From contig CALWHO010000181.1 of NCBI GenBank assembly GCA_944380405.1, forward strand, positions 74 through 64,073: DNA of 64,000 nucleotides, given 5' to 3'. Position 1 is the first letter of the stretch. Each line of letters opens with the position of its first letter. The notes under the pieces were generated by a model. That model was not told the DNA's origin, did not search any database, and was given only the letters and a program-made list of their open reading frames with translations. The DNA is from an uncultured Lachnospiraceae bacterium (GTDB taxonomy: Bacteria; Bacillota; Clostridia; Lachnospirales; Anaerotignaceae). Of this stretch, positions 1,212 through 23,741 are shown piece by piece. Position numbers and translations under genes: made by a program.

Positions 1212-1721
1212 TTACATCTCCTTAACAAATTTAAGCACTTTTGATTTATCAAGTACTCCTACAAGTATAACGGCTATAATAATGCCGCAAATTGTCTGAA
1301 TTGTAAGCCCTGGAAGTCTTACTATGGCATAAGAAATACCGAAAAGAGGTATTTTTACTAAAGTATAGAGAGCTATCTGTATAATGCCGCCTATAACTGA
1401 CCCTGCAATATATCCCCATGATGATGAAGAAAGTATTTTTTCAGTAAATAATCCCATAACATATGCCATTATAAACTTAATTATAAATGTAGGAAGTATC
1501 CAAACAGCATATCCTCCTGCAAAGTCTGCAAGAGCAGCACCTATACCGCCTGCAAAAGCACCTTTTTGTCTGCCTAAAACAAGTACAGCAATAAGTATAA
1601 AAGCGTCACCTAAATGAGTATATCCATTTGGAGAAGGTATTTTAAATGTGTATGTGAATATGAAAACAAGGGCAGCCATTAAACCGCATTTAGCTATTTC
1701 TTTTGTGTTTAAGTTATTCAT
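1212..1721 (-). CDS. ECF-transporter substrate-capture (S) component, substrate unknown
   Basis: This is a 169 aa polytopic membrane protein starting MNNLNTKEIAK. It is Gly-rich (GYTHLGDA, GGIGAALADFAGGY), typical of ECF S components. The ATG at 1721 follows AAAGGAGGAA. Confidence 0.7.
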   Translation of the reverse strand: MNNLNTKEIAKCGLMAALVFIFTYTFKIPSPNGYTHLGDAFILIAVLVLGRQKGAFAGGIGAALADFAGGYAVWILPTFIIKFIMAYVMGLFTEKILSSSSWGYIAGSVIGGIIQIALYTLVKIPLFGISYAIVRLPGLTIQTICGIIIAVILVGVLDKSKVLKFVKEM

Positions 1722-1844
1722 ATATATTCCTCCTTTATTTTTTATTATAAAACGATACCATACAATATATTTAATATCTATATAAGTGACAAAAAACAGA
1801 TGAGTTGTATGGGTACAATATTTAGAATTGTAATAATACAATTT

Positions 1845-2145
1845 CGTCAAAGGCTCATTTCATTCAAGCCTTTGACGAGAAGACAGAAGTATAAAGCACA
1901 TGGTCAGCACTTTTCTTCGAAAAGTCAGCTTCGCTGACCCGCACATCTTTGTGGGTGCCAAGTTCCATCGGCTAAAAAGCCTTGAAACTCACTGTCGGCA
2001 TTTTCCTTTGGAAAACGGCTTTGCCGTCTTAGTTCGTCAGGTGCTTTGCTTTTACTCGTCGGAAGTGAATTCCGCCTGCGGATTCCATTTGGGAAACTCT
2101 TCGTTTCCCAAACCTTTCCGCTAACTAAATGTGATAAAAAATATT
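1845..2145 (+). repeat. E-family structured intergenic repeat, copy E1
   Basis: E1 is homologous to 4316-4511 (+) and to 23429-23711 (-). The shared right module is ctcgtcggaagtgaattccgcctgcggatt...gggaaactcttcgtttccc...cctttccgc. The shared left hairpin is tcaaaggc-tcatttcattcaa-gcctttga. Confidence 0.8.
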
Positions 2146-2149
2146 TTAT

Positions 2150-2182
2150 GTACAATAAAAAAGAAGAACATTTCTGTTCTCC
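2150..2182 (-). terminator. intrinsic terminator of the flavin reductase-like gene
   Basis: On the minus strand the hairpin agaaca-gaaa-tgttct is followed by a T-rich run. Confidence 0.6.
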
Positions 2183-2192
2183 TTTTTGATTA

Positions 2193-2690
2193 TTATTTTT
2201 CTAAAACATCAATTATTTCTGCTACATACATCATGTGGTAGTCTTTATTTGGGTACCATTTATCTATAATTGATTTATCAATGAAGTTTTCTTCTTTAAT
2301 TTCCTGTGAATACATTTTTTTGCAAATAAGAACGAGTCTGCCTTCTTCAAAATAAGGTGTGTTTTCGTCATGGGCAACTGTAAGACCTGTTTTTGCTATT
2401 TTGTCCTCGTCACGACCTGAAACTGTACCAAAGTAAGACATAGTTTCTCTGTAGCTTTCAGGAAGTATTGTTATTGAAAATGTATCGCCATTATCAACAA
2501 ATTCCTTTGTGTATCTCTGTGGACGAATACCTACTACAACGGCATTTTTGCCCCACATAACACCGCCAAAGCCCCATGAAGCTGTCATGGCGTTAACTTT
2601 GCCGTCTTTTTGGGCTGCTACAAGCATCCAGTCTTTGCCTATAAGCTTAAAAATGTTGTCGTTAATGTTTTCTGGTAATATTTTTTTCAT
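2193..2690 (-). CDS. flavin reductase-like (FMN-binding split-barrel) domain protein
   Basis: The 165 aa protein reads MKKILPEN...NAMTASWGFGGVMWGKNAVVVGIRPQRYT, which is typical of the flavin reductase family. Confidence 0.8.
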   Translation of the reverse strand: MKKILPENINDNIFKLIGKDWMLVAAQKDGKVNAMTASWGFGGVMWGKNAVVVGIRPQRYTKEFVDNGDTFSITILPESYRETMSYFGTVSGRDEDKIAKTGLTVAHDENTPYFEEGRLVLICKKMYSQEIKEENFIDKSIIDKWYPNKDYHMMYVAEIIDVLEK

Positions 2691-2695
2691 GTCTA

Positions 2696-3553
2696 TCAGT
2701 TCCTTTCTTCTTTGATTTTTTCTAAAAAGCTGTATGGTATTTTTAAATTGCCTTTTCCTGTGCCAAGGAATATATCTTTTTTGTTAAGACCATGGAAGTC
2801 ACTGCCGCCACTAAACAAAAGTTCTTCTTCTGTGGCTATGCGGGTAATTTCTCTTTCCTGCTCGCTTTTGTATGTGGAATACATTACTTCCATACCCTTA
2901 AGACCAATTTCTTTAAGGTCTTTTACCATATTTCTTATGTTGTGGTAGTCCATACCATAAAGAGTAGGGTGAGCAAGTATTGCTACTCCGCCGCTTTTTG
3001 TAATAATATCTATTGCTTCTTTGGGCGAAATAAGGTTTCGTGGCACAAAGCCAGGCATGCCAGAAGATATATATTTTTCAAAGGCTTCCTTTATTGTGGA
3101 TATATAGCCTTTTTTAACCATAAGCCTTGCATAATGGGCTCTTGTTATGTTTCCATAGTGTGAAAACTCCCTAAGCTCATCAAGTGTCATAGGAAAGCCT
3201 ATTGATGTAAGCTTTTCAGCCATTTTTTCATTTCTTGAAAGTCTTTCTGCACTTATTTCTTTTGTTTTTTCTATAATATATGGATTTAAATGGTCAACAA
3301 AAAGACCTACAATATGGATTTCTTTTTTATTGCCTAAAAAGTTATAGTATGCTGCAAGTTCTATACCGCTTATGGCTTCTACGCCGTATTTTTCGCCGGC
3401 TTTTTTAAAGTCTTCTATGCCGCTAACTGTGTCGTGGTCTGTAAGGGCAACAGCTTTTAAATTTAAATTTGATGCTTCTGCCATTATTTCCTCAGGGGTA
3501 TATGTTCCATCGGAAAATGTGGAATGTGTATGAAGATCAATATATTTTTCCAT
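2696..3553 (-). CDS. PHP-domain phosphoesterase (TrpH/YciV-like)
   Basis: The protein starts MEKYIDLHTHSTFSDG and contains ALTDHD and GGSDFHG motifs. The ATG at 3553 follows AAAGAGGTGA. The upstream part of the listed ORF has no support. Confidence 0.8.
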   Translation of the reverse strand: MEKYIDLHTHSTFSDGTYTPEEIMAEASNLNLKAVALTDHDTVSGIEDFKKAGEKYGVEAISGIELAAYYNFLGNKKEIHIVGLFVDHLNPYIIEKTKEISAERLSRNEKMAEKLTSIGFPMTLDELREFSHYGNITRAHYARLMVKKGYISTIKEAFEKYISSGMPGFVPRNLISPKEAIDIITKSGGVAILAHPTLYGMDYHNIRNMVKDLKEIGLKGMEVMYSTYKSEQEREITRIATEEELLFSGGSDFHGLNKKDIFLGTGKGNLKIPYSFLEKIKEERN

Positions 3554-3655
3554 ATAAATCACCTCTTTTAATATTAGATTATAACACAAAAAACTTGACC
3601 ATGAATATTTTTGTAATTTTTGGAATAAAATTTTACAAAAGGGAGGCGTATATTT

Positions 3656-4045
3656 ATGGCTGAAAAAAACAAACAAATAAATGGCTCATTTAAAAACTAT
3701 ATTAAGGCTGCTTTAGCAGCATATATAATTACGGCAGTAGTGTTTATAGTGTCTGCAATTCTTCTTACATATGGCAAGGCAAATGAAGACACAATAAAAA
3801 TACTTTCTTTTGTATCAACATTTATAAGTGCCGCTGCTGCCGGATATATAACGGCATCAGGTATGGAAAAAAGAGGCATACTTTGGGGTGCATTAGGCGG
3901 ACTTATATATGCGGCAATACTTATGGCTATATTTTATATATTTGGCAAAAATACAGATTTTACTTCTGGTAAGGTTTTATGCCTTGTATTTTCACTTATA
4001 GGAGGAGCCTTAGGCGGTATTTTTGGAATTAACACCAAAAAATGA
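3656..4045 (+). CDS. small four-TM membrane protein (YrzE-like)
   Basis: The 129 aa protein has four hydrophobic segments and follows a GGGAGG RBS. It lies immediately upstream of the SCIFF pair. Confidence 0.65.
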   Translation: MAEKNKQINGSFKNYIKAALAAYIITAVVFIVSAILLTYGKANEDTIKILSFVSTFISAAAAGYITASGMEKRGILWGALGGLIYAAILMAIFYIFGKNTDFTSGKVLCLVFSLIGGALGGIFGINTKK

Positions 4046-4066
4046 CTTTTCAAAATCTTATATACA

Positions 4067-4075
4067 TGATATAAT
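4067..4075 (+). promoter_or_regulatory. candidate extended -10 (TGaTATAAT) upstream of scfA
   Basis: catGaTATAAT lies about 45 nt upstream of the scfA ATG. I saw no clear -35 box. Confidence 0.3.
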
Positions 4076-4117
4076 GCAGTAAGATATTTTTGATTATTTT
4101 AAAGGAGGACGATATAT

Positions 4118-4258
4118 ATGAAACATGTTAAAACATTAAATACATGCATGCTTAAAAATACAATCGCTAAAGGCGGCTGCGGCGAATGCCAGACATCATG
4201 TCAGTCAGCTTGCAAAACATCATGTACTGTAGCAAACCAGGCATGTGAAAACAGATAA
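4118..4258 (+). CDS. scfA: SCIFF (six cysteines in forty-five residues) ranthipeptide precursor, 46 aa
   Basis: This gene is not in the ORF track because it is under 60 aa. My hand translation is MKHVKTLNTCMLKNTIAKGGCGECQTSCQSACKTSCTVANQACENR. It has an AAAGGAGGA RBS, matches the GGCGECQTSCQSACKTSC signature, and sits upstream of the cognate radical SAM gene. Confidence 0.9.
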   Translation: MKHVKTLNTCMLKNTIAKGGCGECQTSCQSACKTSCTVANQACENR

Positions 4259-4290
4259 TTTCTGTTTAAGTGATTAAGCTTGTTTAAGAC

Positions 4291-4313
4291 GGGTGCAGAA
4301 AGCTTCTGCACCT
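4291..4313 (+). terminator. hairpin HP-L (ggtgcagaa-agc-ttctgcacc), proximal copy of a duplicated hairpin
   Basis: A perfect 9 bp stem lies 33 nt after the scfA stop and is followed only by tatttta. It is a near-duplicate of the hairpin at 4514-4533. Confidence 0.5.
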
Positions 4314-4315
4314 AT

Positions 4316-4511
4316 TTTAGGCAAAATCAGGATTTTGCCTAGGTTACTGGCGGTATAAAAAGAAAGTTCCTGCGGCAATATCTGCCTTGAAACTTTCTTT
4401 TTTCCTCGACGGAAGTCAATTCCGTCTGCGGATTACAATAAGGAACCTCTTTGGTTCCCTATACCTTCCAGCTGTTTTATTTTTTTAAAATTATATTTGT
4501 TTTGAAGGTAT
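4316..4511 (+). repeat. E-family structured intergenic repeat, copy E2 (short variant)
   Basis: E2 shares with E1 and E3 the motif ggtataaaa, the stem agaaagtt/aactttct, and the module cctcgacggaagtcaattccgtctgcggatt...ggaacc-tcttt-ggttcc...ccttcc. Confidence 0.75.
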
Positions 4512-4513
4512 GG

Positions 4514-4544
4514 GGTGCAGATGTATCTGCACCTGAATTTTTTT
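4514..4544 (+). terminator. hairpin HP-R (ggtgcagat-gt-atctgcacc) plus T-run; attenuator/terminator between scfA and scfB
   Basis: A perfect 9 bp stem is followed by tgaattttttt and lies 37 nt upstream of the scfB ATG. Confidence 0.55.
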
Positions 4545-4580
4545 GTAACGAAGTTTTTTTGATTTGGAAAGGAGAACATC

Positions 4581-5948
4581 ATGATCCATAAATTTAGTAT
4601 GAATGGCGTTAATGTTGTTATGGACGTAAATAGCGGTGCTGTTCATGTGGTGGATGATATTATATACGACCTTGCAGATGCATTTGAAAACATGAGCGAG
4701 GCAGAAATTATAAATAAATTTTCAGACAAGTATTCTGAAGAAGAAATAAAAGAAGCCGTTTCTGAAATGAAAGAGCTTAAAGATAATGGCATGCTTTTTA
4801 CAGAAGACGAGTATGAAAACGTACTTGATATGGTAGGCAAAAGACAGCCAGTTGTAAAGGCGCTTTGCCTTCATATTGCCCATGACTGTAACTTAAAATG
4901 CAGATACTGTTTTGCAGAAGAAGGCGAATACCATGGTCACAGAAGCCTTATGAGTGCCAAGGTAGGAAAGGCTGCCATAGATTTTATAATCAAAAACAGC
5001 GGCTCAAGAAGAAACCTTGAAGTTGACTTCTTTGGCGGTGAGCCTTTAATGAATTTTGAAGTAGTTAAGGAAATTGTGGAATACGCAAGAGAGGAAGAAG
5101 TTAAATACGGCAAAAACTTCCGTTTCACAATTACTACAAACGGTATACTCCTTGATGACGAAATTCAGGACTACATAAATAAAAACATGCACAACGTAGT
5201 TATAAGCCTTGACGGTAGAAAAGAAGTAAACGACAGAATGCGTCCAAGAGCTGGAGGACAGGGCAGCTATGACGTTATAGTGCCTAAGTTTATAAAGCTT
5301 GCTGAAAGCAGAAATCAGACAGACTATTACATAAGAGGAACATTTACAAGACATAACCTTGATTTTTCAAAAGACGTTCTTCATATGGCAGATTTAGGTT
5401 TTAAACAGATTTCAGTTGAGCCAGTTGTAGGCGAAGAAACAGAAGACTATACAATAAGAGAAGAAGATCTTCCAAAGGTTTACGAAGAATATGAAAAGCT
5501 TGCATGTGAGCTTTATGAAAGACATAAAGAAGGCGGTAAGAGAGATTTTAATTTCTTCCACTTTATGATTGACCTTTCAGGCGGTCCATGTGTGGCTAAA
5601 AGACTTGTAGGCTGTGGCAGTGGTACAGAATATCTTGCCGTAACTCCAGAAGGCGACCTTTATCCATGTCATCAGTTTGTAGGTCTTGATGACTTCAAAA
5701 TGGGTACAGTTTTTGACGGCGTAGAAAGAATGGATATACGTGAAGAATTTGAAAAATGCAACGTATATGCTAAAGAGGACTGCAAAAAATGCTGGTGCAG
5801 ATTCTACTGCAGTGGCGGCTGTGCAGCAAATGCATATCAGCTTAACGGCGATATATTAAAGCCTTATAAGCTTAGCTGTGATTTACAGAAAAAACGTGTT
5901 GAATGTGCAATTATGATTAAGGCAAAGGAATTTCAGGAGGAAAACTAA
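4581..5948 (+). CDS. scfB: SCIFF radical SAM maturase (thioether cross-link forming, SPASM domain)
   Basis: The 455 aa protein has the CNLKCRYC radical SAM motif and a C-terminal Cys-rich SPASM region (CGSG...CHQF...CKKCWCRFYCSGGC). It is adjacent to scfA. Confidence 0.9.
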   Translation: MIHKFSMNGVNVVMDVNSGAVHVVDDIIYDLADAFENMSEAEIINKFSDKYSEEEIKEAVSEMKELKDNGMLFTEDEYENVLDMVGKRQPVVKALCLHIAHDCNLKCRYCFAEEGEYHGHRSLMSAKVGKAAIDFIIKNSGSRRNLEVDFFGGEPLMNFEVVKEIVEYAREEEVKYGKNFRFTITTNGILLDDEIQDYINKNMHNVVISLDGRKEVNDRMRPRAGGQGSYDVIVPKFIKLAESRNQTDYYIRGTFTRHNLDFSKDVLHMADLGFKQISVEPVVGEETEDYTIREEDLPKVYEEYEKLACELYERHKEGGKRDFNFFHFMIDLSGGPCVAKRLVGCGSGTEYLAVTPEGDLYPCHQFVGLDDFKMGTVFDGVERMDIREEFEKCNVYAKEDCKKCWCRFYCSGGCAANAYQLNGDILKPYKLSCDLQKKRVECAIMIKAKEFQEEN

Positions 5949-16270: not shown

Positions 16271-16600
16271 GGTAAGAACTATAAATTCTATATTTTACAA
16301 AAGTATTTGCGAGAGGGCCCATCAATGCACCCGACGAACAAGGGCGGCAAAGCCGGTTTGCGAAGCAAAATGCTGACAGGGAGCCCCGAAGCCCTGACCC
16401 CCTCTCGCGCTCTCCCATCTTGGGCGACGCTTTTCGTATGTGTACGGCTCTTGCCCTTTACAAAATAAATTCTTTTTAACTTTACTTTAAATAAAAAATA
16501 ACCCACTATCCACGAAATACAAAAGGCGTGGCCATAGGGTTGGGGTTCAAGGGGAAGGGACACGGCCTTCGCAACTACGAGTTCTCCCTTCCCCTTGGAG
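16271..16600. repeat. F2 structured repeat, unit B, with inserted sub-module M and a G-rich hairpin extension
   Basis: It has the same framework as units A and C. The apex of the first hairpin is replaced by cccgacgaacaagggcggcaaagccggtttgcgaagcaaaatgctgacaggg. It is followed by the 12 bp stem aaggggaaggga/tcccttcccctt (16549-16596). Confidence 0.85.
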
Positions 16601-23395: not shown

Positions 23396-23427
23396 AAAAA
23401 GAACCTCCACTTTTGGAGGTTCTTTTT
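23396..23427 (-). terminator. distal copy of the duplicated pyrG terminator hairpin, with full U-tract
   Basis: aaaaagaacctcc-actttt-ggaggttcttttt. On the minus strand the stem is followed by TTTTT. Confidence 0.65.
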
Positions 23428-23428
23428 A

Positions 23429-23711
23429 AAGCAGTAGAAAAAATAGTTTTCACACCATTTTACTAATGCGGAAAGGCTTGGGAAACGAAGAGTTTCCCAA
23501 ATTTAATCCGCAGTAAAGAACCCGACGAACAAGGGCAGCACAGCTGTTTTGCGTAAGCAAAATTCCGACGGAATTCACTTCCGACGAGGAAAAACGACAA
23601 GTTTCTAGGCATAAATGCCTATGAAACTTACGTTTTATACCTATGTCTCTCGGCAAAGACTTGAATGTAATGAGTCTTTGCCGAAGGGTAGTGGACATCG
23701 TCCACACCCTC
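23429..23711 (-). repeat. E-family structured intergenic repeat, copy E3 (carries sub-module M)
   Basis: The reverse complement aligns with E1 and E2 at three points: the hairpin gcaaagac-tcattacattcaa-gtctttgc, the motif ggtataaaa, and the module cctcgtcggaagtgaattccgtc[insert]tgcggatt...gggaaactcttcgtttccc..cctttccgc. Confidence 0.8.
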
Positions 23712-23739
23712 AAAGAACCTCCGCTTTGGGAGGTTCTTT
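23712..23739 (-). terminator. proximal copy of the duplicated pyrG terminator hairpin, with weak U-tract
   Basis: aaagaacctcc-gctttg-ggaggttcttt starts 2 nt after the pyrG stop. It is identical to 23398-23425 at 26 of 28 positions. Confidence 0.55.
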
Positions 23740-23741
23740 AA

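Follow-up and report, generated by a model that had tools for sequence, protein, structure and literature searches.

We analysed a stretch of 64,000 nucleotides from an uncultured Lachnospiraceae bacterium of the Anaerotignaceae, referred to at its full length as the window. At positions 1842-2160 it contains a 319-bp intergenic element, E1, which lies between two minus-strand genes. One encodes a flavin-reductase-like protein and the other an ECF-type S-component. The S-component is of the riboflavin-transporter type, and the two genes are neighbours (window 1212-2690); upstream of the S-component gene, Rfam detected no FMN riboswitch. The features of the locus, and two related elements elsewhere in the window, are as follows.

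1721-1723, minus strand: ATG of the ECF-type S-component gene (PF07155)
1842-1898, plus strand: module A, the first module in E1, a 12-bp hairpin CGTCAAAGGC...GCCTTTGACG with the conserved loop TCATTTCATTCAA
1899-1960, plus strand: module B, 62 nt with three small hairpins, optional and always directly after A
1961-1992, plus strand: module C, the central hairpin, GGCT/AGCC
1993-2049, plus strand: module D, an optional 57-nt block
2050-2075, plus strand: module E, hairpin CGGAAGTGAATTCCG
2076-2121, plus strand: module F, outer stem GCGGA/TCCGC and inner hairpin TTTGGGAAAC/GTTTCCCAAA
2122-2160, plus strand: 39-nt AT-rich tail with a decayed right inverted repeat at its end
2161-2184, minus strand: host hairpin AAGAAGAACA-TTTC-TGTTCTCCTT, followed by a T-run on the minus strand
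2193-2690, minus strand: flavin-reductase-like gene (PF01613)
4313-4511, plus strand: E2, a diverged copy of the same family
23425-23712, minus strand: E3, a full copy with Z hairpin, left repeat and tail

The initial annotation placed E1 at 1845-2145. The core of that interval was correct and its ends were not: the element runs from 1842 to 2160 and includes the AT-rich tail. The right repeat at the end of this tail (2145-2160) reads TTTTATGTACAATAAA in E1 versus TTTTTTGACAGTCTGA in the family consensus, and the tail length of 39 nt fits the 39-41 nt of copies that have clear target duplications. The closing stem of module C is AAAGCAGGAG/CTCCTGCTTT in the canonical element of the family and AAAGCAC/GTGCTTT in E1, where it spans B, C and D. 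Module D of E1 is homologous to a block that E3 carries after E. Only about 118 nt separate E1 from the start of the ECF S-component gene, and the predicted promoter of this gene (TTGTCA-17-TATATT, 1792-1764) falls outside the element. On the other side, the tail abuts the hairpin at 2161-2184, which looks like the terminator of the flavin-reductase gene; this hairpin was not listed by a simple terminator scan, and the terminator reading is taken from its sequence.

E1 had been described as one of three homologous elements in the window, and our analysis bears this out. The sequences quoted for E1, E2 and E3 are present, align with one another and match each other by BLASTN and nhmmer. The compensatory differences that had been noted between their stems are also real: the left hairpin (module A) is CGTCAAAGGC/GCCTTTGACG in E1 and CGGCAAAGAC/GTCTTTGCCG in E3, and the terminal hairpin (module F) is GGGAAAC/GTTTCCC in E1 and E3 and GGAACC/GGTTCC in E2. 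An extra block previously placed at 1896-1960 corresponds to module B (1899-1960), which is absent from E3; the family is modular, as proposed, and B was found in 16 copies of the E1 genome and also in another genus (G011). Copies of the hairpin GGGTGCAGA...TCTGCACC border E2 on either side (4291-4312 and 4512-4533), and E3 has the 28-bp hairpin AAAGAACCTCC....GGAGGTTCTTT on both of its sides (23397-23424 and 23713-23740). One further stretch of the window (16323-16383, minus strand) shares 82-86% identity with module D of E1 and with its counterpart in E3; it sits within an unrelated tandem repeat cluster at approximately 16.0-17.0 kb.

The predicted fold of E1 is far more stable than those of shuffled sequences on both strands (z = -6.3 and -6.4), and the canonical 231-bp element folds as five consecutive hairpins (z = -11.7). 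Consistent with the earlier view that the copies are not coding, the two open reading frames that cross E1 (74 and 76 amino acids) have no Pfam match, and copies without module B lack both of them because their starts lie in this optional block. Stable folds whose stems covary strongly might be expected of a structured RNA with a host function, for example a 3' UTR stabiliser, a terminator module or a small RNA, in which the stems covary for the sake of an RNA fold. A discrete structured RNA, or else an element of no known family, was implied by the initial annotation, which could place it in no RNA or MITE family. The RNA half of that statement stands, as searches of the entire window against Rfam at gathering score matched no family, and a search of 1700-4700 at E <= 10 gave chance-level matches only (E >= 2.6); the MITE half does not stand, given the terminal repeats, target duplications and copy number described below.

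BLASTN and profile searches located about 86 loci of the family on 56 of the 209 contigs of the E1 genome (2.03 Mb, 35% G+C), 19 of them at contig ends. The family is patchily distributed: among 39 genera in the same taxonomic family, 13 have it, a spread that does not favour a host RNA; several other genera carry tens of copies. A pattern scan of named genomes recovered it in Anaerotignum lactatifermentans DSM 14214 and other Anaerotignum genomes, in "Clostridia bacterium UC5.1-1D10" and in uncultured Lachnospiraceae.

Expressed in the modules of E1, copies are most often built as A-C-E-F, and B and D are optional. The canonical element measures 231 bp and comprises the hairpins Z-A-C-E-F and a tail of about 40 nt, rich in A and T, after F. 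Hairpin Z (GGGTGTCGA-AAAAG-TCGACACCC) precedes A in most copies and has the 16-bp left inverted repeat, TSAGGGTGTCGAAAAA, embedded in it; the left-end consensus is T(G/C)AGGGTGTCGAAAAA. The right inverted repeat, also 16 bp, lies at the end of the tail as TTTTTTGACAGTCTGA (reverse complement TCAGACTGTCAAAAAA). The two consensus ends match at 12-13 of 16 positions (TGAGGGTGTCGAAAAAG versus TCAGACTGTCAAAAAA), and the repeat starts are 214-216 bp apart, which gives the 231-bp element. Z is absent from approximately 14 of the 51 A modules of the E1 genome, and many of these copies start at the same base after an A-rich stretch, so that Z-less copies could reflect a second way of spreading.

Optional hairpin blocks, including B and D, are placed at the junctions and in the loops of the other modules, and we conclude that the family grows by additions at hairpin loops. 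At least six copies contain a three-hairpin block of about 70 nt, TTAGTACCGCCAAGATGGGCGGACAGCCACTTGTGGCTGGAGTTTGCTTTAGCAAACTTACTGAC, within the loop of hairpin F (C140:4661-5079, C133:1250-1460, C58, C147:10714-11145, C135:3271-3431 and C149), and another block, GAGAACCCGACGAAAAAGGGCGAATGGGG..., occupies the loop of hairpin C on contigs C26, C140 and C176. The starts of several modules resemble the core of the terminal repeat (Z TGTCGAAAAA, A CGTCAAAGG, D CTGTCGGCA and E CGTCGGAAG; for example, window 1842-1855, 1994-2003 and 2054-2062). Such resemblances hint that the interior of the family was built by repeated copying of its end; the optional blocks could derive from repeated copying of the end hairpin, and several modules start with an end-like GTCG/GTCA motif.

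Full copies of the family bear the footprint of transposition. In 26 of 60 full copies, a direct repeat of the flanks scored above the 95th percentile of mismatched-flank controls. What is duplicated is an entire hairpin, 18-32 bp long, which varies by locus and is usually a terminator. Its left copy lies 0-3 nt from the left repeat, and its right copy begins about 40 nt after F, directly past the right repeat. The right hairpin copy retains a T-run, and many targets also have an upstream A-run, so that many of them look like bidirectional terminators. The context seen most often is a convergent gene pair (23 of 56). The T-run on the right copy had suggested a fixed orientation relative to transcription; this idea was rejected, as tandem contexts were divided between 10 co-directional and 13 opposite insertions. 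Two loci of Anaerotignum sp. MAG093 are of interest with regard to target choice. At L131:1560-1900 a copy is inserted at a duplicated hairpin, TAAGGGTGTCGGTTTTTGACACCCTT, that resembles its own Z hairpin, and at L123:3150-3600 two tandem copies have one common target hairpin. Hairpins resembling the end of the element itself may be preferred targets.

These footprints bear directly on the possibility of a host RNA. Most copies adjoin terminators, and many would therefore be co-transcribed with a neighbouring gene, which speaks for such an RNA; against this, there is no orientation bias with respect to the flanking genes, and terminal repeats together with target duplications mark a transposon.

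We searched for insertion sequences with the same ends by way of IS1182-type transposase domains, which led to locus L199, from another family of the same order. The insertion sequence at L199 contains a gene for a 475-amino-acid transposase between the ends TCAGTCTGTCAATAAAC and TCAGTCTGTCAAAAAAG. The transposase scores 417 bits against NF033551 (IS1182 family; cut-off 270) and has the domains DUF772, DDE_Tnp_1 and DDE_Tnp_1_6. A 23-bp hairpin, CCGCCGCATTATAAATGCGGCGG, stands on both sides of this insertion sequence; its second copy is followed at once by a member of the MITE family and then by a third copy of the hairpin. Homologues of the L199 transposase were found in 19 of 301 genomes of the order. 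The related insertion sequences end in TCAGACTGTCAAAAAA (L211, L218, L228, L237 and other loci), identical at 16 of 16 positions to the MITE right-repeat consensus. Nearly all insertion sequence ends at the homologue loci directly abut a hairpin. Each of the four genomes that carry the closest insertion sequences (G036, G123, G191 and G297) has 45-81 MITE matches, and no match was obtained in three genomes with transposases of about 50% identity.

The partner was not found in every genome that carries the family. In the E1 genome, a tblastn search with the partner transposase returned just a 26% identical stretch on contig C107, and no insertion sequence with MITE-type ends was found there. 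The copy-rich Anaerotignaceae genomes G010, G011, G020 and G021 yielded no partner insertion sequence, and one Anaerotignaceae genome has a transposase fragment. Beyond the 16-bp repeats, the subterminal regions of insertion sequence and MITE are no more similar than shuffled controls, and for this reason we rejected the idea that the MITE arose from the insertion sequence by internal deletion. A search for an autonomous copy by pairing of ends across 600 kb of loci and the E1 genome gave left and right repeats 214-457 bp apart, with one exception of 5.9 kb; a pattern scan of five copy-rich genomes found no end pairs 1-2 kb apart.

Other mobile elements were encountered during these searches. 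An abundant insertion sequence at contig ends (subterminal TCATACTGTCTAACAA) was considered as a partner and rejected because its ends differ (GAACTGCACCCC...). A second multi-copy element, ending in ...TCATACTGTCTAACAAATGGGGTGCAGTTC, breaks the assembly at a minimum of eight contig ends (near C1:101, C26:39499, C64:93, C133:3923, C139:4974, C145:5565, C197:22936 and C207:20776), and a version of it of about 60 bp, seemingly the two ends alone, is present at C204:130-195. At 220-2100 on contig C107, immediately downstream of a P-type ATPase gene, lies an IS1182-like insertion sequence with a 538-amino-acid open reading frame (PF13751, E = 4e-36). The hairpins on its two sides have the same stem, CTGTTGCAAAAT/ATTTTGCAACAG, and different loops; they may be its own ends or an old target duplication.

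A different kind of transposase might have produced the same footprint. IS1630 of Mycoplasma fermentans, a member of the IS30 family, targets and duplicates inverted repeats of variable length, and its variable-length duplication over a terminator-like inverted repeat is shared with the E1 family. An IS30-family enzyme such as that of IS1630, or another transposase outside the IS1182 family, would also accommodate the lack of an IS1182-type partner in the copy-rich Anaerotignaceae genomes. We nevertheless consider it improbable that such an enzyme moves the MITE. The identity of the right repeat with the ends of IS1182-family insertion sequences extends over several genomes, insertion sequence and MITE lie side by side on one triplicated hairpin at L199, and the two kinds of element co-occur among genomes. 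IS1630 is autonomous and has an rve/IS30 transposase, in contrast to the DUF772 and DDE_Tnp_1_6 domains of the IS1182-type partner of the E1 family, and among the elements encountered none was of IS30 type with TCAGRSTGTCRAAAAA ends.

Arrays of hairpins in intergenic DNA also recall REP, BIME or REPIN units, which are clustered, palindromic intergenic repeats with conserved stems and which could have been spread as single-stranded DNA hairpins by a Y1 transposase of the RAYT or IS200 type. Genes for Y1 transposases are present in G000, G010, G011 and G020. However, no PF01797 match was obtained in G021 or G016, which both have the elements, and the ends of the MITE match those of a DDE insertion sequence. 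To our knowledge, Y1 transposition makes neither terminal inverted repeats nor long target duplications, and the E1 family has both. REPs are units of 20-40 nt without terminal inverted repeats or target duplications. REP elements are linked to RAYT transposases (PMC3333891), whereas the E1 family does not track the presence of a Y1 transposase. We regard a REP-like origin as the least probable of the alternatives, and very unlikely. The evidence instead favours a MITE whose ends are recognised by an IS1182-type transposase.

Covariation was quantified with the consensus stems of 54 full copies (42 pairs), using as controls shuffles within columns and partners slid out of register. The comparisons were as follows.

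Stem cells in a standard pair: observed 97.3%; column shuffles 90.2% mean and 91.5% maximum; slid partners 27-56%
Pairs (of 42) changed on both sides: observed 20; column shuffles 9.9 mean and 15 maximum; slid partners 3-7

The stems are thus kept by compensatory change to an extent not seen in shuffles, and the earlier proposal that the fold is under selection is upheld. Hairpin Z also covaries; one arm reads, for example, GGGTGTCGA, ATTGTCGAC, GTGTGTTGAC or GGAAGTCGA, and in each of these the partner arm matches. It is between sub-lineages that the signal lies. Variants found in a single copy occur at 0.50 per column in stems and 0.49 per column in loops, with the pair broken in 19 of 36 cells, whereas shared variants kept the pair 139 times versus 41. 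Such a pattern would be expected were the fold required for multiplication of the element, with neutral decay of copies once they are inserted. Because copy-private mutations strike stems and loops equally, the data do not fit a host function of the fold at each site. Judged from these alignments, selection acts on propagating lineages and not on each inserted copy, and the fold would serve propagation. Templated self-correction of palindromes could add to the covariation signal. With private mutations equal in stems and loops and pairs broken about half the time, a structured RNA with a host function becomes as improbable, in our estimate, as mobilisation by an IS30-type enzyme; the discrete RNA implied at the outset gives way to an element that has the marks of a MITE and an end sequence identical to that of IS1182-family insertion sequences.

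E1 itself lacks several of these marks. It has neither hairpin Z nor a left inverted repeat, and module A is preceded by unrelated AT-rich sequence. No left copy of a target hairpin was found at E1, where the best direct-repeat score of the flanks (12) is below the control threshold of 14. Small AT hairpins of the form TTGTA..TACAA (about 1806-1819 and 1830-1843), which resemble the GTACAAT of the tail, were tried as the left duplication and rejected, as the flank alignment is below threshold. The hairpin at 2161-2184 occupies the place that the right copy of the target hairpin has in intact elements. An empty site for E1 was sought in three ways: exact look-ups of both flanking proteins returned only contigs with the same gene spacing; the corresponding region of the same-genus genome G001 is not syntenic, with a different neighbour downstream of the flavin-reductase gene; and one metagenome scan gave nothing above 64% identity.

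The closest relatives of E1 are 93-96% identical to it over A-B-C-D-E. Z is present in two of these relatives (C135 3431-3663 and C147 10714-10945) and absent from a third (C147 5223-5456). Since the former two have Z, its loss from E1 appears to be a simpler reading than that it was never present. Loss of the left repeat and absence of the duplication also account for the MITE nature of the element being hidden in E1. As the left repeat and the flanking duplication are missing and the tail abuts the flavin-reductase terminator, E1 is probably immobile. Most likely it is a decayed, one-ended MITE copy, left as a relic between the flavin-reductase terminator and the promoter of the ECF gene.

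Taken as a whole, we propose, with a probability of roughly 80%, that E1 derives from a non-autonomous DNA transposon (MITE) moved by an IS1182-type transposase, of which it is a decayed copy with one end left. In this model, a DDE transposase of the IS1182 family would move the MITE in trans, a step that we infer because insertion sequences of this family carry the same 16-bp ends. The transposase would choose DNA stem-loops as targets, mostly intrinsic terminators, and would join the ends of the element at the feet of the stem-loop, so that repair would duplicate the whole hairpin on both sides. The internal hairpins would probably be needed in cis for mobility, as DNA structure, because they are kept in the lineages that go on multiplying, and individual inserted copies would then decay neutrally. 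As no such insertion sequence was found in the E1 genome or the copy-rich Anaerotignaceae genomes, and homology is limited to the repeats, mobilisation in trans is put forward here as an inference; the family may be a fossil in the E1 genome, its mobilisation a thing of the past. A bolder extension, which we think possible but doubtful, is that the chain of internal stem-loops is a working part of a structure-guided transposition pathway and provides recognition or assembly sites.

The E1 family can be compared with several known systems. Pneumococcal BOX elements, among the modular hairpin repeats of Firmicutes, and the classical MITEs RUP, Correia and bcr1 are highly repeated intergenic elements, and by description they resemble the E1 family in their intergenic location, hairpin modules, optional or repeated middles and frequent co-transcription with neighbours. 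RUP and Correia elements duplicate TA, and BOX is not known to have defined repeats, a duplication or a partner insertion sequence. The systems nearest to our model lie within the IS1182 family itself. Members of this family target stem-loops, and a study of IS1272 models the duplication of a whole stem-loop (PMC5678879). IS1272 shares with the E1 family a transposase of the same family and a DNA stem-loop target of variable sequence, often just downstream of a gene (PMC5678879). It was reported to replace its target stem-loop and to leave no duplication (PMC5678879), whereas the E1 family duplicates it in about 40% of full copies, and the E1 family, unlike IS1272, carries no transposase gene. 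A MITE derived from the IS1182 family has been described as MITEPye1 of Paracoccus yeei (PMC11578231). Like the E1 family, it is small, non-coding and intergenic, has repeats that match IS1182-family insertion sequences and predicted stem-loops, and is presumed to have been moved in trans. The direct repeats of MITEPye1 are 4 bp long, and a chromosome carries 1-3 copies of it (PMC11578231); the E1 family, in contrast, duplicates whole hairpins of 18-32 bp, occupies about 86 loci in 2 Mb, has a modular build in which some hairpin blocks are optional, and has only the 16-bp repeats in common with its insertion sequence.

We conclude that the E1 family belongs to an ordinary class of mobile DNA and does not represent a new RNA gene. 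A candidate RNA is thereby removed: the folds and their covariation are genuine, but what carries them is a transposon lineage. Its abundance also explains why the assembly is fragmented, with 19 of the 86 loci at contig ends, and it amounts to about 14 kb of intergenic DNA to be masked before regulatory RNAs are searched for in the Anaerotignaceae and related Lachnospirales. The family supplies many natural insertion footprints, including duplications of whole terminators, for the poorly studied targeting of stem-loops by the IS1182 family, and the presence of the element in A. lactatifermentans DSM 14214, a cultured type strain, makes bench testing possible. If the internal stem-loop chain does take part in transposition, the family would be a natural covariation data set on a DDE transposase that reads DNA shape rather than sequence.
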